A stretch of 64,000 bases of DNA from an uncultured Chloroflexia bacterium (GTDB taxonomy: Bacteria > Chloroflexota > Dehalococcoidia > SZUA-161), in assembly GCA_963847595.1 (NCBI GenBank), contig CAWKAJ010000002.1, positions 77,068-141,067 of the forward strand, read 5' to 3'. The notes beneath the pieces were generated by a model that saw nothing but the letters and a program-made list of their open reading frames with translations, had not been told where the DNA came from and made no database searches. The number at the start of each line of letters is the position of its first letter. Position 1 is the stretch's first letter. This document shows positions 29,614 through 49,834 of this stretch, piece by piece. Made by a program: the position numbers and the translations under genes.

Positions 29614-32040
29614 TTAGTCTCTAAGCAGGCAACTAAACGAGGCTACCCTATCGCCCGGCTCGACCTTCATCACGGTTACGCCCTGGGTGTCTCTGCCCAG
29701 AGATGGGATGTCATCAAGGGTGGTCCGTATTACTATACCTTTGGCTGATATGAGCATAAGACCCTGACGGGGATGAACAACGGATGCAGCTATGACTTTG
29801 CCTGTCTTCTCTATTACCTTGAAAGTCCGCACGCCGCTACCGCCCCGTGCTTGAAGGGGATAAGCATTCAGGGGCGTACGTTTGCCGAAGCCATTGGCGC
29901 TGATTACGAAGAGATGAGCATTGGGGTCAACAACATCCATAGCGACCACACGGTCGTCTGCAGCAACTCGGATGCCCCGCACACCGCCACTGGTTCGGGA
30001 AGCAGCCCGCAATTCGGAGACAGCGAACTTGATTGATTGACCGTTCTCTGTTACCAGGATGACCTGGTCATCCGCCCCTGCAAGCCTGGCCGCAATCAGT
30101 TCATCGCCCTGCTCCAGGTCCATGGCGATAAGCCCGCTGGAGCGTACCGAAGAAAACTCAGCGAGGCTTGTTTTCTTGACCTCGCCTCTGCTGGTGGCGA
30201 TGACCAGGAACTTGTCCTCTGAGAAGGCGACGATAGCTACAACAGCAGTGACTCGCTCCTTGGTCTCCATTGAAACTAGATTAACGATAGGCATACCTCG
30301 GGCTGTCCGGGAGCTTTCCCTGGGGATGTCATAACACTTTAGCTGGAATACGCGTCCCCGGTCGGTGAAGACAAGCAGGTTGTGGTGGGTGCTGGCGACA
30401 AGCAGTTGCCGAACGGTGTCTGCCTCCTTTGTCTCCATGCCTATGATCCCCCTACCCCCACGGTGCTGCTGCCGATAGACGTCTGTGGCTACTCTCTTGA
30501 TGTATCCCCTATTGCTCAAGGTGACCACCATCGGCTGTTTGGGGATGAGGTCTTCGTCGCTAAAATCCTTGATTTCCTCATCGCTGATCTCAGTACGGCG
30601 AGCATCACCATATTTGGACTTCAGTTCCCCGACTTCGTCCTTGATCAGGAAATCTATCTTCTTGGGATTGGCTAAGAGGTCCTCAAGGTATGCTATGGTT
30701 TTCAGAACCTCCGTGTATTCATCGGTAATTTTCTTGCGTTCCAGGGCTGCCAGACGACGCAGCTGCATCTCAAGGATAGCCTGCGCCTGAATCTGGGAGA
30801 GTTTAAAGTTCTTCATCAGGTTTTCGCGCGCTGACTCTACGGTCTGGGAACGGCGTATGGTAGCGATAACCGCATCCAGGTTGTCAAGAGCGATCTTGAA
30901 TCCCTCGAGGATGTGGGCCCGTTCTTTGGCTCGCTCCAGGTCGAATTTGGACCTGCGGGTAATAATTTGGCGGCGGAAGTCAACGTAGTTCAGGAGAGCG
31001 CCTTTGAGGGTGATCACTTTGGGCTGGCCATCTACCAGGGCCAGCATATTGGCGAAGAAGGAGGACTGCATCGCAGTGTGCTTATACAGGTTGTTGAGAA
31101 TCTGCTGCGCCTGCCCCTCTCGCCTTAGTTCGATTACAATGCGCATTCCCTCTCTATCTGACTCGTCGCGTACCTCAGAGATTCCATCGATCCTTTTGTT
31201 TTTGGCGAGCTCAGCGATTTTCTCCACCAGCGTCGCTTTATTGGTCTGATAAGGCAGCTCGGTAATCACTATCTGGTACCTGCCCCCTTTGGCAGCTTCC
31301 TCGATGTGCGCTTTGGCCCTGACCACCATCCTGCCGTGGCCGGTAGTATAGGCGCTACTTATCCCTTCTCTCCCCTCCAAAATGCCGCCTGTGGGGAAGT
31401 CGGGGCCCGGAATTAGCTTTATGAGGTCATCGATGGTGGCCTCGGGATTATCTATCAGGTATGAGATGCCATCGCAGAGCTCGCTGAGGTTATGCGGTGG
31501 GATATTGGTGGCCATGCCTACAGCTATGCCGGCAGCGCCGTTGAGGAGCAGATTGGGCAGCCTCGCCGGGAGAACCATGGGCTCTTTGAGACTACCATCG
31601 AAGTTCGGGGTGAAGTCGACGGTGTCTTTCTCGATATCGGCCAGGATCTCGCCAGCGATGCGGGAGAGTCGGGCCTCAGTATATCTCATCGCCGCCGGTG
31701 GGTCATTGTCTATGCTGCCAAAATTGCCCTGTCCATCTACCAGCCTGTACCTCATGGAGAAATCTTGAGCCATACGCACCATGGCATCATAGACTGCGGT
31801 ATCCCCGTGCGGGTGGTATTTGCCCAGAACTTCGCCGACGATACGTGCGCTCTTCTTATAGGGACTGTTATAGTGCAGTCCCATGTCGTTGAGGGCATAA
31901 AGTATTCTGCGTTGGACAGGCTTTAAGCCATCACGGACATCAGGCAGGGCTCGAGAGACAATGACGCTCATGGCGTAGTCGAGATAAGAGTTTCTCATCT
32001 CGTCTTCGATCTTGACTGGCCTGACTGTCCCGATCTCCAT
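29614..32040 (-). CDS. gyrA: DNA gyrase subunit A
   Basis: The N-terminal [28 protein letters not shown]...[19 protein letters not shown] contains the catalytic region and the QRDR. The C-terminus has beta-pinwheel repeats. Confidence 0.95.
31815..31912. repeat. Direct repeat DR-L (gyrA codons 43-76), partner at 44502..44600
   Basis: The two copies are ~92% identical over 98 bp. There are 7 substitutions and a 1-nt indel. Homology stops abruptly on both sides. Confidence 0.8.
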
Positions 32041-32864
32041 GACTTAGTCCTCCCAGGAACTGGCGCCTTTTTTAGAATTTCACACGAATTCAGCGCACAA
32101 TGGCAACAGTGTATCACGTTCAGCGGAGTTCGTCAAAGGGTGGGAAAGGAGGGCCCAACGCCGTCGCCGGGGATGAGGATGATGGTATGGGGGGTGTCCT
32201 TTGGGGTGTTATACTCAAGCATGAAATGGGAGCCTTCCATTTCAATATGTTAAGCAATTCTTGTTTGGAGATATTATTCCAGAGGCTTATTTTGTTGAGG
32301 ATATCGGAGAGGGTTCCTTTTGCTATTACTTTGTGTCCGAGGACAGTAATCCAACGAATTGAGAAGGCTAACGATATTATCGTCGCTGACTTGAGGTAGC
32401 TTTGGCATTCGATAGTTTTACCTCGGAGACGGTAAGGATAGTAATGGTCTCTGTAGTATCACCAAAATGGAGGCTCACAGCCTGTTTAATGTTCTCCAGG
32501 AGTTTGTCCAGAGTGCTGCCTTGAGTGAATATGTCTTCTCCTATCCCTCGGGCACACCAGGCTTAGCCATGGGAATATATTGCTATCTGCATGAGCATAT
32601 TGAAACTCCGCTAAACCTCAAGCAACATTATGTCAACTAGCATTTCCCATATCAACTCAAGACGATAGTATGACCGGGCTCCACCACCGTCTGCGCAAAT
32701 GATAAGCCCCCGTTTCGCTCGTGGTCAAGCCCATATCTGCGGTCAAGGCATATCCGCCGGGAACTCGTGTCAAGTATGAGTATGTTTAAGCGGGTCCCAG
32801 TAAGATCGCTGAAGGGAGCCAGGTGCACGCACATGCCTACCCCCGCGGAAACCCTTCATAGCCT

Positions 32865-32995
32865 TCATAGCCGTCACTGCCCACCAGTCACTGTCGATTG
32901 GCCCCGTGAGTCTTTGAGCGTTTCGGGCCGGGCTGTGGCCCGGAACCCGTCACAGCCGCCGGCTCAGCTCCGTCGGCATAGCTACCCGCGTGAAA
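32865..32995. repeat. Decayed copy of the 3' end and downstream region of the primase-P-loop gene (partner 36035..36165)
   Basis: Direct repeat of ~130 bp at ~75-80% identity. The stop codon of the intact copy (TAA at 36057) is replaced by CAA here. Confidence 0.6.
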
Positions 32996-33084
32996 ACCCT
33001 TTATAGCCTTCATTGCCGTCACCGGGGTAGGATGGATTCAATGTACACCAAAGTCAGGTAGAATAAAGAGACGGAGGTGTCGGC

Positions 33085-33333
33085 ATGCAAGTGATTGCGC
33101 AAGGAAGGTATACCATAGAATTCCGCCAGGAAGCGGTCAAACTGTTAACCGAGGAGAAGTTATCGTTACCAGAGGCAGCCCGCAGGTTGTCTTCGGGGCC
33201 TTCAACGATACGTTGCTGGGTAAAGGTATTTAAGGCTACCAAGCTGGGAGAAATTGGCAAGGGGCAAAGACCACTGACTGATGTTGAGATGTGTATACTT
33301 CAGAATAGGTACTTGGTCACCTGTCACGTCTAA
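33085..33333 (+). mobile_element. IS3-family transposase OrfA (HTH) remnant, no OrfB
   Basis: YTIEFRQEAVKLLTEEKLSLPEAARRLSSGPSTIRCWVKVFK...LTDVEMCILQ matches IS3 OrfA (FKxEAV, WVK, leucine-zipper start). It is truncated, with a minus-strand gene immediately after. A GGAGGTG RBS is present. Confidence 0.5.
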
Positions 33334-33902
33334 CTAACGGAATTTCCTAGTGAATCGCGAATAGATTCGCGTTTCGCCATCTGGTTTGCACTGTCGATAT
33401 TCTCCTTTTCAGGTATAACAACTTGAATACCCAGCGATGCAAGTAAGCGGGTTAGGAAAAGCGACGTAACTTCTTCCCAAGTTCTCCTCTCTCCGGAGAA
33501 AGCCAGCACAACAGGGTTGTCCTGTTCACCTATTGCTACGTCCTTCAGAAAAGATTCGAACTTGTTTCTGTCCCTCTGCGACAGGCTATAAGTCAGTGTA
33601 TCAATTACCTTGTCCAGAGTTACAAAGTGAGGCAAAATTTGTTTACGCCCCATTGCTCGGGTAAGCACAAGCCGAGCGAAAGTGGAAGGGCCTAACCCCT
33701 CCTCCTTGGCAATGTCACGCAGGCGTGTCAACTCCTCACCAGTTAGACGGACAGCCAAGAACGACGAACGCTTTTGTCTGGCTTGAGCTTTGTTAATCCT
33801 CGACTTGTATCCTTCAGCCAGCGGCCCACGTCCCTCCCAATACTTTCTTTCCTCCTCCAGTGATTGAAACTCTGGAACCCCAGTATCCTTCATTCTTTTC
33901 AT
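33330..33902 (-). CDS. BrnA-like/ribbon-helix-helix antitoxin domain protein with ~100-aa C-terminal extension
   Basis: N-terminal VPEFQSLEEERKYWEGRG...KRSSFLAVRLTGEELTRLRDIAKEEGLGPSTFARLVL resembles BrnA/RHH antitoxins. A brnT-like pseudogene lies directly upstream. Confidence 0.45.
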   Translation of the reverse strand: MKRMKDTGVPEFQSLEEERKYWEGRGPLAEGYKSRINKAQARQKRSSFLAVRLTGEELTRLRDIAKEEGLGPSTFARLVLTRAMGRKQILPHFVTLDKVIDTLTYSLSQRDRNKFESFLKDVAIGEQDNPVVLAFSGERRTWEEVTSLFLTRLLASLGIQVVIPEKENIDSANQMAKRESIRDSLGNSVS

Positions 33903-33916
33903 AGTCCCACTCTTCC

Positions 33917-34192
33917 TTATCCTTTTCTTGCTTTGTTTCTGTATCTACGCTCGTAGTGTTCGCTCATTTCGAAAGCGGTTACTGGTCTGAACAACCCTTT
34001 ACCAACTTGCTCAACCACCACGTTGAGATATTTGCCGGCCGCAGTTTGTCCGCTCAGGACATATGTTAGGTTACTTTCTCTCCTGCTTAGATGTGCCCCA
34101 AAGCAGATGTCTTCAACCTCCTCAGGGTTTACGTCGTGGCGCGCGATATGCTCGATATTTTCGTCATCCTATTCAAGCTCACTAATTCTCAA
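33917..34192 (-). pseudogene. brnT-like toxin gene inactivated by in-frame TAG at the conserved Trp
   Basis: The minus-strand translation LRISELE*DDENIEHIARHDVNPEEVEDI...FRPVTAFEMSEHYERRYRN aligns to the BrnT consensus MKFEWDENKNRSNIAKHGVSFEEA...RIISARKATKKER. The TAG (complement of 34169-34171) occupies the position of the EWD Trp. Confidence 0.5.
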
Positions 34193-34579
34193 TCACTTCT
34201 TCCCTTTGTTTAGGGTGTCACAATGTGACACAATTGTCAAGACATGTATGTGCTTCATACTGTCCTTTCACATAGGCAAATCTCTATGCCTCAAGCGCAT
34301 ACAACCCTGAGATTCTGGCTATGGGGCTTATGATAAGCGCGGCTTATAGTGCTTCAGCCTTTTCTGATGGCTTGTCACCGAAGTTCTTGATTATGATACA
34401 GCATAATCAGGATGGGATTTTTTGTAGGAAGACTCATTGAAAGCTGAGGGTACATATGGATGAAATGTGACTTGGAGCAGCATCAGCAAAGTAATTTGTG
34501 TTATGGGCGCTTACACAGACTTGACAAATACCTGCAGATGGAGTATCTTCAATGTAGATACCATGAATGGAGGTTTGAA

Positions 34580-34822
34580 ATGAGAACCCGTGTCCAGAAA
34601 TGGGGCAACAGCCTTGCCTTGCGTATCCCGAAATCTTTCGCAACCGAAGTAGGACTCCAGAGAGAAACGTCTGTTGAGGTATCGCTGGCAGATGGGAAAC
34701 TCGTTATCACACCCGTAACTGAACCGAAGCTGAACCTTGAACAACTTCTGGCAAAGGTCACGAAAGAAAACTTGCATCACGAAGTTGATACGGGCCCCTT
34801 CACAGGTAATGAAACATGGTAA
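34580..34822 (+). CDS. mazE: MazE/AbrB-type antitoxin
   Basis: VQKWGNSLALRIPKSFATEVGL...DGKLVITP is the SpoVT/AbrB swapped-hairpin signature. A GGAGG RBS is present. The stop overlaps the mazF start (ATGGTAA). Confidence 0.8.
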   Translation: MRTRVQKWGNSLALRIPKSFATEVGLQRETSVEVSLADGKLVITPVTEPKLNLEQLLAKVTKENLHHEVDTGPFTGNETW

Positions 34823-35163
34823 GCTCGCGAACTTATGTTCCACAATGTGGGGATGTGGTACGGATTACCTTGAATCCGCAAGCAGGTCATGAACAAGCAG
34901 GACGTCGTCCTGCTGTGGTACTCTCACCTCAAAGCTATAACGGGAAAACTGGGCTAGCTATCCTTTGTCCCATTACCAACCAGATTAAAGGCTATCCATT
35001 CGAGGTTCTTATCCCTGCGGGGTTGTCGGTCGCGGGGGCGATCTTGTCCGACCAGGTCAAGAGCTTAGATTGGCGCGCTAGAAATGCAGAATTGGTCTGC
35101 ACCTTGCCCACCGATACTATCTCGGAGGTGCTCCAGAAGTTGGTTACGTTGTTATCGCAGTAG
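34816..35163 (+). CDS. mazF: MazF/PemK-family endoribonuclease toxin
   Basis: GDVVRITLNPQAGHEQAGRRPAVVLS...LAILCPITNQIKGYPFEV...ILSDQVKSLDWRAR is the classic MazF/PemK pattern. Confidence 0.85.
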   Translation: MVSSRTYVPQCGDVVRITLNPQAGHEQAGRRPAVVLSPQSYNGKTGLAILCPITNQIKGYPFEVLIPAGLSVAGAILSDQVKSLDWRARNAELVCTLPTDTISEVLQKLVTLLSQ

Positions 35164-36056
35164 GGAAATGCTTTTCAGAGCAATTTTCATAGCAATAAGA
35201 CCTTTTGAATTACCTTAATCGGAGTGATAGAAGAGTAAGATCACCTCGGTTAATACCTTCCTTTCATTTCACAGACTGACATCCTATCTGAACTGTTAGC
35301 TACATACAAAATGTAGACCATCGACATCTTGCTGCTGGAAGCCTATTACAGACACCACCTTCACGGAGGAGGAATGTCCTATACAATGTCGCATGCAGAA
35401 AACAGTCGCACTATGTAAGTTATACGTACAATTCTGAAGCTATCCATGAGATATTACTGTGAGGACCATACGAAGCGCAAGAGGGCACCTTTGTCACAAC
35501 CACTATATCAAACCGAGTACTTATCTGCTTCTGGCGTAGAAAAATAGTATGAACCAATGCAGGCAGTATTGCGCCAGAGCTGTTATTAATGGGCGCCTGT
35601 CAGCGGACCAACAAGATCACGGGTGAGTCATCAATTCACGAACACTGGGATGTTTGATTTATTTGTACTATGACCATATTTCCGACAAGCAGTTATTCAG
35701 TATTCTACCGCAATCTACTTCTCTACTGACTCCGTCATTATTCTAAGGCGACTCGCTCGATGAGACCCTCGAAAACGCTTCCATTCAAGGGGCTATTTTC
35801 TCCCCATAGATCCGATAAACCATGTCTCCGATGCCTCCATTTTCAGGTCCGGGGTCAAGACAGCGCACACTGCGAAACACTATTTCAGGCAGTTTCTTTT
35901 TCCTCGAGTCGCCTATTCCGCTGTCATCTCCCATAGCGCGTTGATTTCAAGCAGGACAGGGAGCAGAGCCTTGGGGCACATCGTTCCCGTTGACTTCTGG
36001 GTATTCAGGAACGGGTCGAAAACCAACTAGCCTTGGTAGCCGTCACTGCCCACCAT

Positions 36057-38798
36057 TCACTGGTGATTAGCCCTGTGAGTCTTGGAGCGTATCCGGCCAG
36101 GCTGTGTTCCGGAACCCGTCACACTGACCGGAGCGGCTTCCTCAGCAGCAGGCTCGGTCGGCGCCTCAATGCCCCACCTATCGCAGACACTCGTCAGCTG
36201 CCCGGGCTGAATATAGTACATCACGCCTGTGGCAGTCCTCTTCTTCGATCTGGGACTGTGCAACAGGCCGAGGTTTTTCAAGCTGTATCCGACACTCTGC
36301 GGCACATCCCTGGGCAAATGGCTCCCTGCCAGAACCTGCCTGAGCTGCCCTTCCATCTCCTTTGCGGCAATCCATTTAGCCTCAGCTCCATCTTTTCCCA
36401 CCAGGGATACCAATACTTCCATCAAGGCCAGGTCGAATTCCTCGAGCCCGCTGTCCGAGCCCTCAGCTGAGGCCTCGCGGGCATACTCCACCAGCCGATC
36501 CAACACGCCATCGGCCCCACGCTCGTCCAGGAGCTTGGCCACGGAGAACAGGGGCAGCCACAATTCGTGGTCCCGGTTCAGGAGTATCCTGAGGCTGGCT
36601 TCGTCGGCGTAGAGCTGCCTCACCTCAGGGAAGTGGCCCAGCGCGAAGCAATACAGCTCGTGTCTCATGCCGGCCCAGTCCTCGCCGTTATCGGAAAGCT
36701 CCACCCTGCCGATTTCGGGGTTCTCGGTCCTCAACATGTTTATAGATATGCACCGGCTGCCCAGGATGTCCTCTATGGGGTCTATGCTGGCGATCATCTT
36801 GGGGCTGTACACGTCGTACTGTATCGCCATCAAACCTTTATCCGGGACGGCCTCCGCCCTGATGGCGGCGGCCCCCTTCTTGCACCCCGCCCTGAGTAGG
36901 CCCAGGAGCTCGCGGCTGTCCCGGTCCCTGGCCCCTCTCAGATTCTCCGCCTCGTCCAGGCCCACGCAACACCGGGAGGACTGCACCAACCTGAAGGTGG
37001 CGCTGGGGGTGATGCCGGAGGCCAGCACCATGTTGAATGCCAGCTTGGAGGCGAGCCTCATGGTCTGGGTCTTGCCGGTGCCCTTAAACCCGTAGAGGTG
37101 CAGATAGGGGTAGCTGGTGAACAGCGGGAACAGATAGCTCGCCATGCACCATATGGCCAGGATCTCTGCCTCCACGGGGTCCCTGAAATCTATGTGCCTT
37201 CTCACTATGCCCAGCAGCCTGGAGAAGGTTTGGCCAGGGTCCGGGTCATCTCCATCCAGGAACCTGTCTATATCGGCCTTCCTCCAGCGCTTCTCGCAGG
37301 GGGCTTTGGGTTCGCTCCGGAACAGGACGCGTTGCCCCCTTATCTCAAGCCCTCTCCCGTACGGCTCCAGCCTCTGCCTGTCGCTGGTGATCAGATAGGG
37401 CCTGGTAACTACCCTATTATCGATTTTCATATCCAAAGCCACGCTTACCACCCCTATTTGCTCCAGGTAGTCCAGCGCGGGGTGTATGGCCAGGCACGCG
37501 CCTTCATCGATATCCTCTGCACCAATGCCTGCGGCCCTTTCCTCCTCACCTCTGGCCTCCTTCAGGTGTGCTGCAAACTGCCCGCGGGTGATGCCCAGGC
37601 CCTTGACCACCTTCCTCCGGTATTGAGGCAGATCGAACTCGGCCAACGTGGCCATGAAGCGGAAGAGCCCTTCCACCTCGTCAGCCCGGCGCGCGCCGTT
37701 AAGTGCCGCGATACGCCCCAGCATGCTATCGACGAGATCGGGTGATTTGTTCAACAGGCTCCTAAACTGGTCCTTGGAACAGCGTAGAGGTCCCTTGGCG
37801 GATTCATAGAGGTCTCTCCCGTGCGTGGCCGCTGGGACCAGGTAAGGCATGATGCCTATACCTTTGGTGATGCGCTTGCCCAGGGCAAGCGCATCACCAA
37901 AGGCGTCAGGGATAAAACAAATATAAATTGGGTCGCGGCCCGCCAGAAGCGGCAGCCACTGCTCCGGCAGCGTGCCCCGCGGCACAAACAGGCAATTCAC
38001 TGACCAATCCACCAGAGCCATAAGGTCCCCGAAGCTCAGCACGATGACTAGCTCCCCCTTGTCGCCCTCGGCCACCGATCGTAAGGGCAAACCTTTCACA
38101 AGTTCATTTGGGGGCAGGTCCAGGTATGTGGGCCAGGTAGACTTTTCCAGGGCTTTCCCTGTCATAAATACCACCCGACCCCGGGAGTGGACCGGAATGG
38201 TGACCCTGTTTTGAAAGAAGTCGCTGCCGTCCTCTCTGAGCACACCGGCCTTTTTGGCCAACTCGATATCGAAGCCCTTCCCGGCCAGATACTGGGCCAG
38301 GTTGGCTCCCTGAGCCCATCCTAGCTTTAGTTTCATCACTGAAGCTTCATCCTGAGCAACCTTTTCCACCACTTCCTCCAGGCGAGCCCTATCTTGCACC
38401 AGGGCCTTGTGATAGAGATCGACTGTGGCCTCCAGGACATCCCCCATGGCTCTGAGTTCCAGCTCTGATGGTGCATCCGGTTGGGGCAGCGCGGGCTTCA
38501 GTATCCCTGCCCTGTCGGCAAGCATGTTCCTGGCTTGTATGAAATCCACCCCCTTCAATTCCCGAACCAGGTCGAATACATCTCCCCACCTGGCGCACCC
38601 GGAACAGCGGTAGGATTGGTCATCGACGTACACCGCGAAGCCTGCATGGCCGCCCTGGGGCAAAGGACAGGGGCACTTGAGCTCCGACGGAACAGTTTCA
38701 TCGAATCCTGGGAAGTCGGGAACGAACTCAGGCAGCACGTCCTGGATGGGATTGGCTGCCCTCACCTCCTCTGTGAACCCTGTTGTGATTCCTTTCAT
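36057..38798 (-). CDS. Primase-like replication protein: N-terminal zf-CHC2 zinc finger, Toprim-like domain, and a C-terminal P-loop NTPase (SF3-helicase/DUF3631-like) domain
   Basis: CPCPLPQGGHAGFAVYVDDQSYRCSGCARWGDVFDLV matches the DnaG zf-CHC2 pattern (CPFH...F.V....YHCFGCG..G). The C-terminal region has a Walker A motif (LYGFKGTGKTQTM) and a Walker B motif (VGLDEAENL). The gene has high GC. Confidence 0.65.
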   Translation of the reverse strand: MKGITTGFTEEVRAANPIQDVLPEFVPDFPGFDETVPSELKCPCPLPQGGHAGFAVYVDDQSYRCSGCARWGDVFDLVRELKGVDFIQARNMLADRAGILKPALPQPDAPSELELRAMGDVLEATVDLYHKALVQDRARLEEVVEKVAQDEASVMKLKLGWAQGANLAQYLAGKGFDIELAKKAGVLREDGSDFFQNRVTIPVHSRGRVVFMTGKALEKSTWPTYLDLPPNELVKGLPLRSVAEGDKGELVIVLSFGDLMALVDWSVNCLFVPRGTLPEQWLPLLAGRDPIYICFIPDAFGDALALGKRITKGIGIMPYLVPAATHGRDLYESAKGPLRCSKDQFRSLLNKSPDLVDSMLGRIAALNGARRADEVEGLFRFMATLAEFDLPQYRRKVVKGLGITRGQFAAHLKEARGEEERAAGIGAEDIDEGACLAIHPALDYLEQIGVVSVALDMKIDNRVVTRPYLITSDRQRLEPYGRGLEIRGQRVLFRSEPKAPCEKRWRKADIDRFLDGDDPDPGQTFSRLLGIVRRHIDFRDPVEAEILAIWCMASYLFPLFTSYPYLHLYGFKGTGKTQTMRLASKLAFNMVLASGITPSATFRLVQSSRCCVGLDEAENLRGARDRDSRELLGLLRAGCKKGAAAIRAEAVPDKGLMAIQYDVYSPKMIASIDPIEDILGSRCISINMLRTENPEIGRVELSDNGEDWAGMRHELYCFALGHFPEVRQLYADEASLRILLNRDHELWLPLFSVAKLLDERGADGVLDRLVEYAREASAEGSDSGLEEFDLALMEVLVSLVGKDGAEAKWIAAKEMEGQLRQVLAGSHLPRDVPQSVGYSLKNLGLLHSPRSKKRTATGVMYYIQPGQLTSVCDRWGIEAPTEPAAEEAAPVSVTGSGTQPGRIRSKTHRANHQ

Positions 38799-40057
38799 GT
38801 TCCCCTCCCTTGTCTTAAGGCTTGGCTATGCCCTGGCTTCAGGTTCAGCCATTCAGAGTAAGGTGCGCGCCTAAGAGTCCTATGGGACCAGGTTGCTCCA
38901 AAGCAGGGCAGAACCCGGAACTACCGACCCCGTCTCCCGCTGCCTTGTGCTATGGGCCGGCGTTTTCTCTAGCTTCCCTCTGCGCAGGTATGGTGTTGAC
39001 CACGGCCCAACGAGCAGCAAGCCCACGACAGGGGTTCTTGAGTTAGTCCAGTGCCCGTTTGGAAGGCCCCTAGCCCCAAGCGTCTCCCCCGGTTCAGCGC
39101 AGCTAGTAACAGGGCGGGCGATTCTCCGGAGACTACATTATACGACCTTCGCCCCAGTTTTCAAGAGCGGTTTCGCTGCTACTTTTGACCGGTCGAAGCC
39201 AGGCCACACGTGGAACAAAGGGGAAATCTCCCCGGCCACCCTGGCCAACACAGGGTGCCCCGCAAAGGAGGAGCCAATTCAACACATTTCCTGCCTGCCG
39301 GCATTATATTATGCCAAGTTAGCTCTGCTTTTGCTGGGGATTTCACTGGCACTTTGGTACTCCCTCAAGGGGGCTGACTATTTCGGACCTTGGGGAGAGC
39401 GCGGGGTTTGAGAAAGCGGGGTGCCCCTGGAGGAGGAGCCCAGGGCAGTACGCGAGGGCTTGCGGAGGGGAGAAACCTGGCACTGTGGCTGTTCTTGCCG
39501 CTCGGTGGCGCAGACGGTAGCTATTATGGCTGGGGGGAGACGTGGGCGGGTAGCCGGGTTTCTACGGCTTATCAGTCCAGAAGCACTCAGCCCATGGAGA
39601 GGTATGGCTCTCCTTCCTGATCATGCCGGCTTTGACCGGGGCTCCCTGGTCTCGCTGTTTCTCCCTCGCTCCGCATGATGAGCAGACACTCCCTAATTGG
39701 AGCGATGCGTTAATGTTTGGCACACGTATCATGGCCAAAGTTGGCCAGAGAGTCCTTAGCCTTCTGGCCAGGCTCGCGGATAAGGAGCCTATGGAACACG
39801 AGTCCCTCGAAGGGTCGGCAGAGGAAGCGGTTCCGCTCGGCGTTCCCGCAACAAATCATACTCCGCCGGGGCAGTCAAGCCGAGACAAGAGGGGGGAATG
39901 TGCTCCTAACGTGTTGAGTCTTGGAGCCCCATCATCGTCAAGTTTAAGAAAGTGGTAAGCGAATAGCAGAGGCAAAGGGCAGGAGGGGCGGAGCGTAATG
40001 CCAATGCGGTACCGCAGAACGTCGGCCCCCTAGGTTCACTGGGAGCAGCGTCGCTAG

Positions 40058-40306
40058 CTATTCTGAGTAGAAGTGCGGTTCGAGTTCGGTCTCAGGGATG
40101 TACCGCGCGGCTTGGCGCATAATAGCCCGTATTGTGCCGGGATCGAGCTCGGTGTGCAGAGGAATAGTCAGCGTCTGCTTTTCTCCGCTTTGGCCTATCC
40201 TGCGCAGTTTGACGTGGCTGCCCCTCTGGGAGTGGACATGAAAGCCAAACGCGGCCATGATGGTCAGCACCTGGCCTCCCGAGAGGCGCTTCAGCCTAGG
40301 GGACAA
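40058..40306 (-). CDS. hicA: HicA-family mRNA interferase toxin
   Basis: LSGGQVLTIMAAFGFHVHSQRGSHVKLRR...TLTIPLHTELDPGTIRAIMRQA is a YcfA/HicA fold pattern. Confidence 0.7.
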   Translation of the reverse strand: MSPRLKRLSGGQVLTIMAAFGFHVHSQRGSHVKLRRIGQSGEKQTLTIPLHTELDPGTIRAIMRQAARYIPETELEPHFYSE

Positions 40307-40523
40307 CCACAGGCTCCAACTCGAATGTCACCAAGAGCGATGGGTTAGGGGCGAGGTCGAAGTCAGCCAGGTCTTCGCCTTCAAGGTGCAGTGCCACCGC
40401 CTCCTGGAGATTTGAGATGGTTTCATCTAGGGTCTCGCCTTGGGTGACAACTGGTATCTCCAAGCACTCCGCAACATAATACTTCTCACCCTTATGCACA
40501 AATGCCTTGATCGAATGGCGCAC
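40296..40523 (-). CDS. hicB: HicB-family antitoxin (UPF0150)
   Basis: KGEKYYVAECLEIPVVTQGETLDETISNLQEAVALHLE matches HicB N-terminal domain consensus. It overlaps hicA by 11 nt. Confidence 0.65.
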   Translation of the reverse strand: MRHSIKAFVHKGEKYYVAECLEIPVVTQGETLDETISNLQEAVALHLEGEDLADFDLAPNPSLLVTFELEPVVVP

Positions 40524-40751
40524 AACTACCCCCTCTATTCGATACGGGTGTCGACTACTGCATACACCCTGTTGCTAAACATTTTAAACCCAGCTCATTG
40601 TTTCTGCAACTTGCTGTACCTTCTGGCACTGTGCAGATCGGGACAGGGTTCCTCTAAGCCTAATGTGTGGTCCCTGCCCTTTCTATAGGCGTCTCAGCAG
40701 AGGCAATTACCGAAAACCGCCAGAAAGCCCGCATGTCCGTGTCGGTGATGA

Positions 40752-43277
40752 ATGAGCCTTGAGCTCCCTTCTGAAATAGTTGACATGTGTGTTATTTTGT
40801 GCGAGATTATCGACAGGGAATGTGAACATTCCAGGAATGAGGTCTATCGAATAAACTGCCGCCTCGTTCAGGGACTGAAGGGGGCAGATTTCCTACTTGC
40901 TCTGGATGCGCTTGCCTGGAGGGCGGGGATGCAGAAGCCGAAGCTAGGTGAGGGCGATATGAAGTGGGAGCTCAAACAGAGAGCCATTGAGGATGTCCTG
41001 GGCGCTACCGCCGATATCTACCACCGGGCCCTTGTGCAAGACAGGGCCTTCCTCCAACATCTACAAGCGAAGATGGCCTGGTCTGAAGAAACTATAAAGG
41101 AAGCCAAGCTAGGGCTGGCGCGGGGAACGGACCTGGCGGGGCATCTGGCTGCCCAGGGGTTCGATTTGAAGCTGGCAAAAGGGGCCGGGGTGGTGAAGCG
41201 GGACGGCAGGGCCTTCTTTGAGGGCAGGCTCGTAATACCCTATTTGGCTCAAGGCAGGGTGGTGTATATGTCAGGGTGGGCCCTGGAGGGTTCAAGCCTG
41301 CCCGAATGCCTGGGTCTCCCCGTGAGCAGATTGGTGCAGAGGGTGGCCTTTAATGCTGATGCCCTGCACGAGCAGGGGAAGCTGATCATCGTGGAGGGCT
41401 GGGCCAGCGCATTGACCCTGAAGCAGTGGGGCTACGATGTCGTCTCCCTGGGGGGGACGGCCTTATCCGGGGAGGAGCTCCGGCTCTTGAAAGGCCACGA
41501 CAGGATTTACCTTTGCTTCGACACTGGCCCCTTCGACAGGGCTGTGGCGGCGGCGAAGGGGATCGCAAGGCAAATGGGCATCGTGGCTCACCTGGTCGAG
41601 TTGCCGCAGGGCGCTAAAGACCCCCATGAATTTGCCCTCCAGGGCCATACCGGGGCTGAGTATGAGGAGCTATTGGAACGGGCGAGGTCCCTGCTTGACG
41701 TGATGCTGGAACGTGCTGCGGCCACCATAGGTGTGGAGCGAGGCAGCTACGAGAGAGATCTCTTCACCTGCATGCGCGGGCTAGGCGACCCCGATATCGA
41801 GCCCTATCGGCAGAAGGCGCTCCGGAGCCTGGGTATAAATGATCACGATTTCACGGTGTACCTTGTGGCGGCCAGGACTGGGGAAAGGATACCGCTGGAG
41901 GTCGCTACGCGGAACTTTGCCCCCGGCTCGTTCTTGGAGCTACACCCTGCCCTGGATTACTCGGCCCAGGTGGGGGTGCTCGCCGCAGCTTGGGATGAGG
42001 TCATTGGCAACAGGGCTGTTACCAGGCTCTATCTGATCACCAGCAACAGGGAGAAGCTGGAGTGGGACGGGCGCCCGCTCCAGCTCTATGGCAAACGCGT
42101 GATACTCCGGAGCGAGCCCAGGGCTCCCTATGAGAAGCGCTGGAGGGAGGCAGATATCGAGAGGTTCCTGGCGGGAGATGACCCGGATCCTGGCCAAACC
42201 TTCAATCGGTTGCTGGAAGCAGTGCAGCGTCACATAGGCTTCAAGGAGGCGACAAAGGCGGAGCTCCTGTCCATATGGTGCATGGGCAGCTATCTGTTCC
42301 CCCTTTTCGGCGCATATCCCTACTTGCATCTCTACGGCCCCCAGGGCTGGGCCAGGACGCAGACCATGGCGCTGGCGACCAGGGTGGCCTGCAACATGGT
42401 GCCCTCATCTGCCGTCGCACCCCGCAACATGTTCAGGTTGGTGCAGTACTCCCGCTGTGGCCTGGCTCTGGATGAGGTAGAGAACCTGAGGGGATCCCCA
42501 CACCAGGGTGCCCAGGACCTGCTCAGGTTCCTCAGGGCTGGATACAAGGAAGACGGGCGAGCCGAGGTATGGGAAGACGAGCCTGGCCAGGGATCACACC
42601 TCAGACTGCGCGAGGCCTATAGTCCCAAGATCGTTGCCAGCACAGGTGACATAGAGGATATCTTGGCTGGCAGGTGCATCCCCCTAGATATGCGGAGCAG
42701 CGAAGGTGCCGGCAGCAGCGGGCTCGAGCTTTCGGACGATGCCGAGGACTGGCCCGGCATCAGGCACGAACTCTACTGCTTTGCCCTGGGCCACTTCCAG
42801 GAGGTGAGGCGGCTATACCTCGATGACGCTGCCATCAATATTTCCCTGGAGAGGGACAATGAACTGTGGCTGCCCCTGCTCGCCGTGGCCAAATTCCTGG
42901 AGGAGCGCGGGGCCGACGGCGTGTGGGATAGAATGATGAGGTACGCCGTCGACGCGTGCGGCTCTGCCTCAGAGGGACTGACCCGGGAATTCGACGTTGC
43001 CCTGATCAGGGCACTGGAGTCCAAGCTGGGGAGGTCTCAAGTCGAAGCTGAATGGGTCTATGCCTCCAGCCTTGAATTGAAGGTTCGCGCCGCTACGGGG
43101 GGACGGTATTCCCGGCAGCAGGTGGCGCACCGGGTGGGAGCCAGGCTGAGGGAGCTGGGGTTCTTAAGCGAGCCCGGATCGAAGGAGTCGACACAAAGGA
43201 GTGTGAGGTACCTTATTCATCCCCAGGATGTGAGGGATGCCCGCGGTAGGTATGGACTCAAGTCGGTGCGGTTTTAG
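40752..43277 (+). CDS. Paralog of the primase-P-loop protein, with degenerate Walker A and no canonical zinc finger
   Basis: The protein is colinear with the 36057..38798 product from RAGMQKPKL onward (for example GRVVYMSGWALEG vs GRVVFMTGKALEK, and PYLHLYG...TQTM). The P-loop is GPQGWARTQT instead of GFKGTGKTQT. A Walker B-like LALDEVENL is retained. Confidence 0.6.
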   Translation: MSLELPSEIVDMCVILCEIIDRECEHSRNEVYRINCRLVQGLKGADFLLALDALAWRAGMQKPKLGEGDMKWELKQRAIEDVLGATADIYHRALVQDRAFLQHLQAKMAWSEETIKEAKLGLARGTDLAGHLAAQGFDLKLAKGAGVVKRDGRAFFEGRLVIPYLAQGRVVYMSGWALEGSSLPECLGLPVSRLVQRVAFNADALHEQGKLIIVEGWASALTLKQWGYDVVSLGGTALSGEELRLLKGHDRIYLCFDTGPFDRAVAAAKGIARQMGIVAHLVELPQGAKDPHEFALQGHTGAEYEELLERARSLLDVMLERAAATIGVERGSYERDLFTCMRGLGDPDIEPYRQKALRSLGINDHDFTVYLVAARTGERIPLEVATRNFAPGSFLELHPALDYSAQVGVLAAAWDEVIGNRAVTRLYLITSNREKLEWDGRPLQLYGKRVILRSEPRAPYEKRWREADIERFLAGDDPDPGQTFNRLLEAVQRHIGFKEATKAELLSIWCMGSYLFPLFGAYPYLHLYGPQGWARTQTMALATRVACNMVPSSAVAPRNMFRLVQYSRCGLALDEVENLRGSPHQGAQDLLRFLRAGYKEDGRAEVWEDEPGQGSHLRLREAYSPKIVASTGDIEDILAGRCIPLDMRSSEGAGSSGLELSDDAEDWPGIRHELYCFALGHFQEVRRLYLDDAAINISLERDNELWLPLLAVAKFLEERGADGVWDRMMRYAVDACGSASEGLTREFDVALIRALESKLGRSQVEAEWVYASSLELKVRAATGGRYSRQQVAHRVGARLRELGFLSEPGSKESTQRSVRYLIHPQDVRDARGRYGLKSVRF

Positions 43278-43361
43278 CCTAGGGGGGCGCTCTTGGCACA
43301 CGTAGACATAAGCTGTATAACGAAGCCGTAGGAATGATAGACAAATATACGGAGCATCGAT

Positions 43362-43568
43362 ATGTCAAAGATGACCGTCGTCATTGATGACAAGTTGCTG
43401 GACGAGGCGATGCGCGTGAGCGGAGCCAAGACTAAGAAACAGGCCATCGCCACCGGGCTCGAAGAGTTAATCCGCAGAAAGTACTTAGAAGATTTGCGCC
43501 AAGAATTGGGCACATTCGAACTCGCCCTTTCTTCAGGGGATCTGGAGAAGCTGAGGCACGAGCAGTAA
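43362..43568 (+). CDS. vapB: VapB-type antitoxin
   Basis: MSKMTVVIDDKLLDEAMRVSGAKTKKQAIATGLEELIRR is the typical VapB signature. Confidence 0.75.
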   Translation: MSKMTVVIDDKLLDEAMRVSGAKTKKQAIATGLEELIRRKYLEDLRQELGTFELALSSGDLEKLRHEQ

Positions 43569-43572
43569 TCTG

Positions 43573-43976
43573 GTGCTCATCGACACCTTGGTTTGGATTC
43601 TGGCTCTCGGGAAACCTCCACTGGCGAGATAAGGGATGAGGTAGCACACCTGCTGGCGGAGAACAGGGTAGCTATTGTCCCAGTGATACGTCTCGATCTA
43701 TTAGGGGGAACGAAACCACTGGATGATTTTAACCGCCTGCAGAGCCGCCTCAATGCCCTTCACCAGATGGCTGCAGATGAAGCCATCTGGGAGACAGCGA
43801 TTCAGCTTGCCTTCAGATTACGACAGGGAGGGAAGATGATCCTTTATACTGATTTACTCATTGCCTCGGCTGCCATCGTTAACAGCTGTACGCTTCTTCA
43901 CTGTGACAGGCACTTTGATCTGATGGCTGAGCATACCCGTTTGAACATGAGAAGCCTTGTTTCTATTGTAGGGTAA
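43573..43976 (+). pseudogene. vapC: VapC PIN-domain toxin gene interrupted by a frameshift
   Basis: A GTG start gives (M)LIDTLVWILALGKPPLAR*, in frame 1 with TAA at 43630-43632. The rest of the PIN domain (EIRDEVAHLLAENRVAIVPVIRLDLLGG...DLLIASAAIVNSCTLLHCDRHFD) runs in frame 0 through 43976. Confidence 0.55.
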
Positions 43977-44501
43977 CGGACCATCACAGAGTCTTCGTAG
44001 CTACCCCCAACCGGAATGGGCTCGAAGTCATTAACGAATGCCTGGAATCATTTTAAGAGGTAACCTACCCCAATCATAAGGTTCATGATGCCAATATGCC
44101 GTGTTCGCTGACCATGAGCAACCTGCGGAGTTTCTGCCAAGCCATACCTTCAAGGAATCGCATGCTCGGTGGGGTAACCCCCACCGTTAGGTATAAATAG
44201 GTGTGATCCTATCGCCTGGATCAATGCCATAATATACACCAGCCAAGTTACGAACATTTTTTGCCACCTCCTCGGCCTGAATGAGTGTTGGCTTCTGCCA
44301 CTACAACTCATTAGACTACGGTACGAGGAGCAATACATCAGCGAGATTCTTATTTTCTATAGAGAGAGGGCCGCTAGAAATAGTGACCTGAGTCGTTGGT
44401 TTCCTTTGGCTTACGATTGCGACCTCCCCGGGGTATCCGGCAGTAATGAAGTACTGTTCAAGCATGGTGGAAGATAACGGCTTTGTTACGCTAACGTTCT
44501 T

Positions 44502-44600
44502 GGTATTTGCCCAGAACTTCGCCGACGATACGCGCGCTCTTCTTATTAGGGACTGTTGTAGTGCAGTCCCATGTCGCTTAAGGCGCAAAGTATTCTGCGT
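44502..44600. repeat. Direct repeat DR-R: displaced, degenerate copy of gyrA codons 43-76 (partner 31815..31912)
   Basis: See DR-L. The copy carries a 1-nt insertion and substitutions, so it no longer encodes the GyrA segment. No gyrA start or upstream sequence follows it. Confidence 0.8.
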
Positions 44601-44651
44601 GCATCCGAATGAGATGACGTTACAAGGGGGGCGATGCTGGCCCTTTTGTCA

Positions 44652-46629: not shown

Positions 46630-46989
46630 TTCCCTGTAAGTTTGGTTTTTTGCCTCACCAAATCATTTAACTATGCTTGGAGGCCTGACACATCATGGGG
46701 ACTCTCATTTTATGTAGTAGGGATGGCTCTGGAAAAAGTGTTACCTAGTTACGAGTTTGCCTTGGCCACGGTTCGTGGTTTTACGCAGTGGGGGTGAACT
46801 AAGGTACTCTCTGAGAAATGGCTCTCTGGTGCTTGTTCAAGGATGAAGGGAAAATAGAAGAAGCTTTGATTTGAGGTGGGCGTATCGGTAGGTGCGAAAA
46901 TCCGCAGTTTCCGGTTCGGCTTTGTAACTTTCAGGGTGCCATTATGATAGGTTAGCTTTGGATCCGGTGCCGATTAGCCGTCTTTGAAT

Positions 46990-47022
46990 AAAGGAAAGGG
47001 GGAGACTCTCCCCCTTTCCTTT
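46990..47022 (-). terminator. Perfect hairpin ~105 nt downstream of the small gene 47128..47343
   Basis: aaaggaaaggggga-gactc-tccccctttccttt. The minus-strand continuation (attcaaaga) is only weakly T-rich. A homologous hairpin is at 49693..49723. Confidence 0.4.
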
Positions 47023-47127
47023 ATCGTACTGAAGCTTCAAGGACACTTCGAGCCGTAACCTATTGAAGTGGCGCGAACCTTGCTCGCAAAATTAGAACTT
47101 GCCCAGCCGAGTATCCGGGCTCACCGC

Positions 47128-49642: not shown

Positions 49643-49692
49643 TATTATAACAGATTTATTTCAAAGCCTTAGTACCATTGCCGCGCTAAGTT

Positions 49693-49723
49693 AAAGAAGG
49701 GGAGGATAATCCTCCCCTTCTTT
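49693..49723 (-). terminator. Hairpin ~110 nt downstream of small gene 49835..50047
   Basis: aaagaaggggagga-taat-cctccccttcttt. It is homologous in position and sequence context to the hairpin at 46990..47022. Confidence 0.4.
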
Positions 49724-49834
49724 ACCGTCTCTCTGAAGCTCCAAGGACGCTTCAGTGCAACACATATTACTAAAATCGCGCGAACCTCGTTCGCAAAAAT
49801 TATAACCTGCTCAGCCGATTGTCCCGGCACACGC

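Follow-up and report, generated by a model that had tools for sequence, protein, structure and literature searches.

A divergent pair of primase-helicase-like paralogs beside gyrA in an uncultured Dehalococcoidia bacterium, one with an intact and one with a degenerate ATP-binding motif

Phages, plasmids, and genomic islands typically drive their replication with primase-helicase fusions and self-loading initiator-helicases, which have been described as single genes whose products form homo-oligomers. We analyzed a 64,000-nucleotide stretch of DNA from an uncultured Chloroflexia bacterium (contig CAWKAJ010000002.1, positions 77,068 to 141,067 of the forward strand), hereafter the window, in which two divergently oriented genes, here called A and B, encode paralogous proteins with a DnaG-like N-terminal region and a predicted AAA+ module at the C-terminus. 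Protein A has an intact Walker A motif, and protein B carries a degenerate one. For mobile-element primase-helicases, the literature that we searched appears to contain no description of a conserved pair in which one copy is ATPase-competent and the other ATP-blind. The explanation that we favor, and to which we give an even chance, is that A and B are the fossil replication module of a mobile element, in which A would be an ATPase initiator-helicase and B a non-catalytic partner or regulator.

Among the closest described systems are the Rep and PriRep5 proteins encoded by pathogenicity islands of Staphylococcus aureus (SaPIs) and Cch of the staphylococcal cassette chromosome mec (SCCmec); self-loading initiator-helicases have been described for SaPI Rep and SCCmec Cch (PMC9371898). 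Like A and B, these proteins (structures 5dgk and 7pds) belong to integrated islands and have an AAA+ core of the hexameric-helicase type followed by a C-terminal winged helix. The winged helix of the SaPI Reps recognizes origin repeats, and PriRep5 is a primase-helicase fusion, which is also the architecture of A and B. When the whole module of A is compared by structure, Cch and PriRep1 rank with the best matches. However, A and B have no detectable sequence similarity to SaPI Rep or Cch, their fused primase is of the DnaG/Toprim type and is degenerate, and no iterons lie beside the genes. Furthermore, the staphylococcal systems have one helicase gene, whereas the locus described here has a pair of paralogs, one predicted to be active and one inactive.

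A second described system is RepAM, the PF12307 (DUF3631) replication initiator of actinomycete integrative elements (e.g., pMEA300), which often lies beside a primase (Prim-Pol) gene and co-evolves with the host when the element is integrated (PMC3218068; PMC2440964). The similarity lies in the C-terminal lid and winged helix, which match PF12307 in members of the family to which A and B belong. RepAM binds 8-bp repeats that form a hairpin within its own gene, whereas the island that carries A and B lacks such repeats and its only intragenic hairpin is a lineage-specific palindrome in gene A. Descriptions of RepAM mention neither an AAA+ helicase nor a pair of paralogs.

Phage and plasmid fusions such as P4 alpha, T7 gp4, the D5-like proteins, and NrS-1 likewise carry a primase and a ring-helicase NTPase in one polypeptide, and P4 alpha combines a primase, a helicase NTPase, and a C-terminal winged helix that binds the origin. 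The helicase regions of NrS-1 and D5 are structural matches to the module, and the best viral matches are uncharacterized phage proteins made of a Toprim domain plus the module. In contrast to these systems, the primase sites of A and B are degenerate, and their best structural matches are of the MCM/Cch type rather than superfamily 3 (SF3) or the RecA-type, DnaB-like helicase of T7 gp4. An earlier note on this DNA had called the combination of a primase zinc finger, Toprim, and an SF3-like P-loop P4-alpha-like. That likeness turned out to be architectural only: no P4-family primase, D5_N, or SF3 helicase model in Pfam or NCBIfam matches A or B at E<=1, and the best whole-module matches are MCM and Cch.

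Precedents for inactive AAA+ subunits come from the origin recognition complex (ORC; Orc2-5), the archaeal Orc1/Cdc6 heterodimers, the clamp-loader subunit delta-prime, and MCM2-7, in which some AAA+ paralogs have lost nucleotide binding or hydrolysis while keeping the fold, an arginine that acts in trans, and the winged helices. Chains from ORC and Cdc6 are consistent structural matches to A. These complexes were shown biochemically, whereas a hetero-oligomer of A and B is suggested by conservation, by adjacency, and by the pattern of residues retained and lost.

The two genes and their main parts are as follows.

36057-38798, minus strand: gene A, 913 amino acids; DnaG-like zinc ribbon, degenerate Toprim domain, predicted AAA+ initiator-helicase module, and winged helix, with Walker A intact
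38502-38681, minus strand: residues 40-99 of A, CHC2-type zinc ribbon (PF01807, E=3e-8), reading CPLP..GGH ... CSGC with the canonical His replaced
37719-38501, minus strand: residues 100-360 of A, DnaG RNA-polymerase/Toprim core, with Glu replaced by Leu (L254) and DxD by IPD (residues 296-298); mosaic between orthologs
36159-37511, minus strand: residues 430-880 of A, N-terminal beta-domain, AAA+ P-loop core, helical lid, and winged helix
37068-37091, minus strand: Walker A of A, G570-T577 (GFKGTGKT)
40752-43277, plus strand: gene B, 841 amino acids; paralog of A with Toprim motifs EGWAS/DTG and a dead Walker A; zinc finger lost locally
42336-42359, plus strand: Walker A equivalent of B, residues 529-536 (GPQGWART), with Gly-Lys changed to Ala-Arg and Ser/Thr to Trp

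The earlier note had described these as two divergent, colinear, paralogous open reading frames (ORFs) with the P-loop intact in the first and mutated in the second, and this description holds. The two proteins align at 46% identity over 804 residues with 4 gaps (BLASTP), a likeness well beyond chance. The Walker A region of A reads LYGFKGTGKTQTM, and its Walker B reads VGLDEAENL; the corresponding regions of B read LYGPQGWARTQTM and LALDEVENL. Protein A thus has an AAA+ core with both Walker A (GFKGTGKT, GxxGxGKT in general form) and Walker B (GLDEAE), and B has Walker B and lacks Walker A. B retains the Walker B DE, the equivalent of R253 (see below), the lid, and the winged helix, and it is present as an annotated 841-residue protein in a public sequence collection.

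Residues ~430-880 of A and B have no match in curated libraries and no sequence relative in the Protein Data Bank (PDB). An AlphaFold2 model of this C-terminal module, built from a 90-sequence alignment, is confident (pLDDT 92.3, pTM 0.87) and contains, in order, an N-terminal domain rich in beta strands, a helical linker, the alpha/beta core with the P-loop, a helical lid, and a terminal winged helix. An earlier full-length model from 21 sequences was poor in the P-loop core, and its ORC-like matches were taken as a lead only. In module numbering, a beta-hairpin at residues 215-233 stands ahead of the sensor-1 strand (238-242), and the invariant Arg253, in the motif GSRCISI, precedes strand 254-258. 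By its position in the secondary structure and by the resemblance of GSRCISI to the SRFD arginine-finger motif of MCM proteins, Arg253 is a candidate arginine finger. The last ~70 residues show a weak profile match to the ArgR winged helix (E=0.07).

When the model was searched against the PDB with Foldseek, the matches included Mcm5 (E=2.8e-7), Mcm3, Mcm4, and Mcm6 as well as SCCmec Cch (5dgk; E=5.5e-7, TM 0.40/0.37), and the match probability was 1.00 for MCM, Cch, D5, ORC, and RuvB. Further matches were the NrS-1 helicase region, vaccinia D5, SaPI PriRep1 (7pds), and the helicase of the African swine fever virus PrimPol, followed by ORC/Cdc6 and RuvB. The TM-scores are only 0.35-0.40, and the clade may be MCM-like, SF3, or initiator. 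Among viral models, the top matches are phage proteins of equal length and architecture that are annotated only as Toprim (E=1e-26, TMq 0.63-0.71). Thus, the NTPase fold that the earlier note had expected at the C-terminus is present in a confident model and is recovered by structural search.

The earlier note had also seen no obvious characterized family in the domain order and sequence. The module is no orphan, however: a profile of six family members retrieves 15,985 cluster representatives at a threshold of E<=1e-3, of which 1,641 also pass E<=1e-30, so the module belongs to a large family of about 16,000 cluster representatives. Among 63 members scanned, the fused primase domains are of several unrelated, interchangeable types and comprise the DnaG zinc ribbon (19 members), PriCT_1 (5), AEP-TOTE (4), Prim-Pol (3), and the RepB primase (1). 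DUF3631 had been named by the earlier note as an alternative assignment, and it holds as a distant link that runs through relatives: 5 of the 63 members match PF12307, among them P0069 (27.1 bits against a cut-off of 24, over the C-terminal 133 residues), and A and B themselves have no match to PF12307 at E<=1, which makes them distant relatives rather than recognized members. (Labels such as P0069 and L001 denote our related genes and loci.) The genes that neighbor family members include large serine recombinases, ParA/ParB, tyrosine integrases, single-stranded DNA-binding proteins, and helix-turn-helix regulators, with such genes also at P0007. A scan of reference genomes for the family returned four loci only, all of them distant.

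Taken together, the fold, the primase fusions, the neighbors, and the link to DUF3631/RepAM indicate that the module is probably a mobile-element initiator-helicase of the self-loading kind. We assign A and B to a large, Toprim- and AEP-linked, DUF3631-related family whose modeled module is an MCM/Cch-like AAA+ core with a winged helix, and we regard this structural assignment as confident. The gene type is therefore a member of a large and recognizable family that is without experimental study. Elsewhere in the family, an intein (Intein_splicing plus LAGLIDADG_3) is present in one member, and another matches the archaeal MCM winged-helix model PF21120, which fits the MCM-like assignment.

The lesion in B is not peculiar to the window. 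Walker A is dead in all five diverged forms of the B lineage, as listed here with the state of the zinc finger.

B of the window: GWART, zinc finger lost
B of L001-L003: GWART, zinc finger intact
B of L020: GWART, zinc finger intact
B of L011: GWART, zinc finger lost
B of L010: GWTRR, zinc finger lost

Every readable Walker A in the other family genes (about 95 loci) keeps GK[ST], and module residues Gly146 and Lys147 are 100% conserved in 73 other family members. The changes specific to B cluster at the nucleotide pocket (K143Q, S/T145W, G146A, K147R, A188V, D196H/R, G213D, R218V, and R261S), and the residues retained in B include D186, E187, and E189 of Walker B, R253, R283, R313, and the winged helix. 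In a neighbor-joining tree, the B genes form a clade with 100% bootstrap support that is sister to a group (71%) of the A genes and the single-copy genes P0004, P0005, and P0058, and the B clade has the longer stem. Identity to the outgroup P0006 is 38-41% for B and 50-51% for A and P0004. This tree position, the longer stem, and the lower identity to P0006 point to an old duplication followed by faster evolution of B. Since the duplication predates the split of A from P0004 and P0005, the lesion has persisted over ~50% amino-acid divergence without loss of the ORF.

We next compared the ratios of nonsynonymous to synonymous substitution rates (dN/dS), calculated by the Nei-Gojobori method with bootstrap intervals. 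Among the B genes dN/dS is 0.40-0.54, and all bootstrap intervals lie below 1, including those among the three 5'-truncated copies; in the A lineage the ratio is 0.35-0.50. In the segment around the P-loop it is 0.15 for A and 0.32 for B. Over 2187 shared alignment columns the five B genes diverge by at most 16% of nucleotides; stop codons are absent there, and the indels number two, one of 12 nt and one of 3 nt. In a simulation of neutral substitution, the probability of finding no stop was <=0.0007 for each pair of B genes. Purifying selection thus acts on both genes, and in B it continues to act after loss of the 5' end. The bootstrap intervals, the in-frame indels, and the simulation lead us to reject B as a pseudogene, and they agree with the view of the earlier note that an ATP-binding-deficient copy has been retained rather than left to simple decay; a ratio near 1 or frameshifts, which that note had named as signs of the contrary, are absent from the 734 codons that the B genes share. 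When the window is compared with the L001 genome, gyrA has a dS of 0.17 and a dN/dS of 0.07, and dS is 0.23-0.26 for B and 0.19-0.23 for the C-terminal half of A. Since these dS values lie near that of gyrA, B and the C-terminal half of A have diverged roughly with the chromosome under a constraint about six-fold weaker than that on gyrA.

The divergent unit recurs in other genomes, one of the checks that the earlier note had proposed. L001-L003 have head-to-head pairs whose spacer is ~770 bp long and lacks hicAB, and L020 has one with a spacer of ~620 bp and an A gene that is cut by the contig end. L010 and L011 show the same hicAB-B-vapBC synteny as the window, and their contigs end inside or just past hicAB, before any position that A could occupy. 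Thus, an A-lineage neighbor accompanies three of the three B genes that have enough flanking sequence. The hicBA genes, which the earlier note had included in the arrangement, are limited to the lineage of the window, L010, and L011 and are absent from the L001 and L020 pairs, so they are not a feature of the pair itself.

The first ~330-360 residues of A and B match DnaG. The match to the Aquifex primase 2au3 has E=6.5e-13 by sequence and E=1.5e-12 by fold (Foldseek), and the full-length DnaG model TIGR01391 is matched in part, with scores of 71.0 bits for A and 73.6 bits for B that fall below its cut-off of 283.6. Pfam recognizes the CHC2 zinc ribbon (PF01807) in A only and Toprim (PF13155) in B only. 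The zinc knuckle of A has CPLP...GGH in place of CPFH, so its canonical His ligand is substituted, and the canonical CPFH/CPWH...CxxC is kept in B of L001 and L020. The statement in the earlier note that only A has a zinc finger is therefore correct within the window and does not extend to the inactive lineage as a trait.

In the Toprim fold, the catalytic residues that bind metal are the Glu and the DxD motif. Reading these motifs from an alignment of A, B, true DnaG sequences, and all relatives gave the following.

True DnaG (P0012, P0014): EGYVD, EGYMD; DxD is DGD
Outgroups P0006 and P0007: EGFAD, EGITD; DxD is DSD, DGD
A of the window: LSFGD (VLSFGD); DxD is IPD
A of L001: EGFAD; DxD is GCD
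A-type genes P0003 and L020: LSFGD; DxD is GRD, GQD
B lineage: EG[W/P/S]AS; DxD is DTG, GAG, or DTS (EGWAS and DTG in the window)
P0004: EGYVD; DxD is KKS
P0005: ESFAD; DxD is GDH

The DxD motif is lost across the whole clade of A, B, P0004, and P0005, and A additionally lacks the catalytic Glu, so that a complete DnaG active site (EGxxD plus DxD) is found in neither A nor B. Given these losses, we infer that neither protein is an active primase. The description of A as the active copy thus stands for its ATPase motifs and fails for its primase site. Of EGxxD, A keeps the Asp and B the Glu; of DxD, A keeps the second Asp and B the first. We considered whether the two sites might therefore complement one another and dropped the idea because the site lies within one chain.

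The Toprim region of A is also mosaic. Residues 241-430 of A (window 37520-38211) share 33-34% identity with A of L001 (L001 4109-4800) and 51-64% with P0003, L018, and the A gene of L020 (L020A), and the corresponding segment of A from L001 shares 57% identity with P0004 and ~52% with B genes. Between the window and L001, dS is 0.85 in the Toprim segment of A as against 0.19-0.23 in its C-terminal half. This mosaic pattern points to replacement of the Toprim region in A of L001 by recombination or gene conversion with another copy of the family. In the same region lies the palindrome mentioned above.

37861-37903: perfect palindrome of 21+1+21 nt in codons 299-313 of gene A; no palindrome of the 64-kb window is longer, and orthologs lack it

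It encodes AFGDALALGKRITKG immediately past the degenerate DxD, at a place where the orthologs have DAWDEAVALGRRIFKA and no palindrome, and it could be a product of templated quasi-palindrome correction or a hairpin site.

The loss of the zinc finger in B of the window can be traced to an insertion sequence.

40752-40865, plus strand: start of the B ORF (38 codons), which comes from an IS200/IS605 Y1 transposase (its left end and N-terminus) and is joined in frame to B

These 38 codons are homologous to the left end of the transposase and its first ~14 codons. The fusion point lies near codon 76 of the ancestral gene, whose first ~75 codons, including the zinc finger, are lost; B of L001 aligns to the window from 40862 onward only. 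Window positions 39875-40865 share 89-90% identity with the ends of L010 and L011, which run on into an IS200/IS605 Y1 transposase. The transposase of L010 starts with MDMEREHSRDQVYLINYHLIWC, and the window reads ...IDRECEHSRNEVYRINC and then continues directly with B sequence (RLVQGLKG...). A remnant of the zinc finger in B, suggested by a MAFFT alignment, was rejected, as the same codons align to the start of the IS200/IS605 transposase in L010 and L011. L010 also has a frameshift near the 5' end of B (L010 1391-1500). Since the zinc finger and the ancestral 5' part have been lost, the part of B under selection is the primase core onward, and chiefly the C-terminal module.

Between gene A and hicA lies a spacer with conserved non-coding features.

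38799-40057: spacer, 1259 bp, about 58% GC
38799-39130, minus strand: conserved 5' leader of gene A
39137-39164, minus strand: near-consensus sigma-70 promoter, TTGAAA-16-TATAAT (11/12), pointing at A and conserved in L004 and L005
39341-39360, minus strand: conserved box GTACCAAAGTGCCAGTGAAA, upstream of the second promoter-like unit; unique in the window and recurring upstream of family genes in L001, L004, and L005
39053-39424: box-plus-promoter element, with further sites at L004 4350-4721 and at L005 5922-6189 and 9491-9661

The GC-rich spacer of ~1.25 kb that the earlier note had described, together with a hicBA pair on the minus strand, is present as stated. Positions 38799-39067 share 83-85% identity with the region upstream of A in L001. 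Positions 39053-39424 recur upstream of P0004 and on either side of P0005, and they consist of two repeated units, each made of the box and, after it, a sigma-70-like promoter; of the two promoters, the one at 39137-39164 is the better. Immediately upstream of B, L001 matches the upstream region of P0004 in inverted orientation, which indicates that the duplication took in the regulatory region. From its sequence and recurrence, the box is a candidate operator or initiator-binding site, and we infer that the spacer comprises promoters, a shared operator, and a long leader. The copy of the element downstream of P0005 in L005 stands ahead of an 898-residue AEP-TOTE/DEAD-helicase gene, so that one element is associated there with two primase/helicase genes.

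Other contents of the spacer were considered and rejected. Rfam gave 0 hits at the gathering threshold in the window, a permissive scan gave one chance-level hit (E=1), and no tRNA or tmRNA was found; the folding stability of the A leader is not unusual (z-score +0.94). ORFs of 172 and 111 amino acids in the spacer have no Pfam match, and their likeness to ORFs at other loci is explained by the conservation of non-coding DNA, which is seen in both orientations. As for an iteron-type origin, clusters of exact 8- to 11-mers occur nowhere in the island, and a repeat search returned short chance pairs only, besides the paralogous arms of A and B and the palindrome in gene A.

These observations suggest how the pair might work. 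In the explanation that we favor, A and B would be duplicated replication-initiator genes of an old mobile element integrated beside gyrA. A would be the ATP-driven motor and the binder of the origin or operator, and B, presumably unable to bind ATP, would be a non-catalytic subunit of a mixed oligomer with A, to which it would lend, in trans, its arginine finger and a winged helix that binds DNA, much like delta-prime in clamp loaders and Orc4/5 in ORC. The primase domains, being degenerate, would serve as scaffolds or DNA-binding parts rather than as polymerases, and the upstream box-plus-promoter units would be likely autoregulatory or binding sites. A stricter version, namely an obligate MCM-like ring or hetero-oligomer in which catalytic A alternates with a pseudo-ATPase B that contributes only the arginine finger and the winged helix, and in which the primase domains are non-catalytic scaffolds, is in our estimation on the unlikely side.

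The same retained and lost parts also bear on a different role for B, that of a negative regulator or competitor. As an ATP-blind initiator, B would occupy the same DNA sites as A or poison A oligomers, and it could thereby stop an integrated element that cannot excise from initiating replication where it sits, or shut out related incoming elements in a manner like incompatibility or immunity. B keeps the winged helix and the fold relevant to oligomerization and not ATP binding; it outlives the loss of the zinc finger and part of the primase domain, so that the selected function would be that of the C-terminal module; and it sits on a long, fast-evolving stem. The upstream box/promoter element was duplicated together with the genes, and in an island without an integrase uncontrolled initiation would do harm. 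Against this, simple loss of A could take the place of a silencer, yet within the locus the strongest constraint falls on the ATPase core of A (dN/dS 0.15). L004 has an A-type gene without B. The regulator and partner models overlap, and the present evidence fits both alike; as an account of the pair in its own right, we consider regulation by B rather unlikely.

The inference that the replication module belonged to a mobile element is supported by its genomic setting, which comprises the following features.

32144-44602: genomic island of 12.46 kb with the A-B pair, absent from the sister genomes L097 and L098
L097 9627-10001 and L098 1281-1478: empty sites
44501-44600, minus strand: frameshifted fragment of gyrA codons 44-76 at the B-side island edge, a direct repeat of 31814-31912 inside the functional gyrA
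34577-35163, plus strand: mazE/mazF, in a window-specific insertion between gyrA and A, with 87-88% identity to modules that L005 and L088 have upstream of P0005-type genes
40058-40306 and 40296-40523, minus strand: hicA and hicB, a local insertion common to L010 and L011 and absent from the L001 and L020 pairs
43362-43568 and 43593-43976, plus strand: vapB and vapC/PIN, syntenic with B in L010 and L011 and with an A-type gene in L004

In L097 and L098, whose gyrA shares 86-88% nucleotide identity with that of the window, an Fn3-repeat gene lies directly upstream of gyrA and marks the empty site. In the window, the island begins about 100 bp upstream of gyrA, at a junction that is common to L001, and runs in the order insertion sequence IS3 OrfA fragment, 190-residue ORF, MazEF, gene A, spacer, HicAB, gene B, and VapBC. 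It is thus present or absent at a fixed site and is bounded by a 100-bp repeat derived from gyrA, as expected of an integrated element. L020 likewise has a decayed copy of gyrA codons 1-43 just beyond B (L020 4540-4668). The gyrA fragments at the island edge in the window and L020 resemble what would remain of an old gyrA 5' end, and they suggest that an element once integrated into the 5' region of this essential gene and displaced that end. In a test of whether the island supplied the present 5' end, the divergence of the gyrA 5' segment was not different from that of the rest of gyrA. The stretch from A to B has a GC content of 59%, as compared to about 51% in the flanks. The best named matches to the GyrA of the window share 79-80% identity, and the host is an uncultured Dehalococcoidia.

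Between gyrA and A, the window has a specific insertion of 3 kb that includes an IS3-type OrfA fragment (HTH_Tnp_1; 33085-33333) and an adjoining 190-residue ORF (33330-33902) that has no family match and whose middle resembles a ribbon-helix-helix antitoxin. Outside the island, two more long, perfect palindromes at 46988-47024 (18-nt arms) and 49692-49724 (16-nt arms) may be terminators.

The toxin-antitoxin modules recur beside family genes on other contigs: MazEF (window 34507-35266; L005 2537-3284; L088 4623-5370) and VapBC (window 43311-43994; L004 3483-4167) share 77-88% identity between loci, from which it appears that these modules travel with the gene family and are not random neighbors. 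Such company raises the idea that the pair has been co-opted by the host or the island for conflict or defense, for example to sense or block invaders with related initiators, with the dead primase domains as nucleic-acid sensors. The presence of the genes amid MazEF, HicAB, and VapBC, which accompany family members at several loci, is consistent with this idea, as are the maintenance of both ORFs with degenerate Toprim sites, the AEP-TOTE/DEAD-helicase gene that adjoins the L005 relative and has the same upstream element, and the vertical inheritance of the pair with the chromosome since the split of the window from L001. However, toxin-antitoxin modules are also ordinary addiction cargo of integrated elements, there is no effector domain, and the wider family context is one of replication, partition, and integration. 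The C-terminal module has no match to a defense family, and membership in a defense system was rejected, as PADLOC returned only generic DnaG-like similarity to DRT accessory models. We therefore regard a role in defense as quite improbable.

Several observations weigh against the explanation that we favor. No integrase, iteron cluster, or recognizable origin was found in the island, which makes a role in replication today doubtful. The loss of DxD in both copies means that DNA priming by either cannot be assumed. The constraint on both genes is weak (dN/dS about 0.45, as compared to 0.07 for gyrA). Only three A-B pairs are known, and an interaction between A and B is only suggested, by conservation, adjacency, and retained and lost residues; likewise, the arginine finger is assigned from sequence resemblance and secondary-structure position only, and not from coordinates. 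In addition, the locus shows erosion: L004 keeps an A-type gene, facing vapBC, and has apparently deleted B, with a B-like fragment of 28 residues upstream (L004 1453-1536); the A-type gene of L022 is split by a frameshift (L022 1-1315); B has suffered insertion of an IS element and truncation in the window, L010, and L011; and L010 has its 5' frameshift.

Given this erosion and the lack of an origin or integrase, explanations by decay and by exaptation stay in play. In the former, both genes would be non-functional relics, the selection signal would be residual or artefactual, and the Walker A lesion would be an inherited first step of decay. A dN/dS of 0.4-0.5 is high for bacterial genes, and the IS insertion, the 5' truncation, the frameshifts in some copies, the deletion of B in L004, the missing integrase and origin, and the lost catalytic primase residues all agree with decay. 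Yet the five B genes, at nucleotide divergence of up to 16%, remain free of stops over their 734 shared codons (P<=0.0007 per pair) with in-frame indels only, every dN/dS bootstrap interval excludes 1, the P-loop region of A has a dN/dS of 0.15, and the lesion has been kept over roughly 50% amino-acid divergence with the ORF intact. Taking both sides into account, we think it very improbable that the pair is a relic of this kind.

What the pair would mean depends on which of these explanations is correct. Should it be no more than a relic in slow decay, it would be an ordinary fossil element, of interest only locally. If A and B work together, they would provide a simple and tractable bacterial case of AAA+ replication machines gaining non-catalytic subunits. 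And if the mixed ring is true, the locus would represent a mobile-element machine caught moving from a homomeric to a heteromeric AAA+ assembly, the step that lies behind eukaryotic ORC and MCM2-7.

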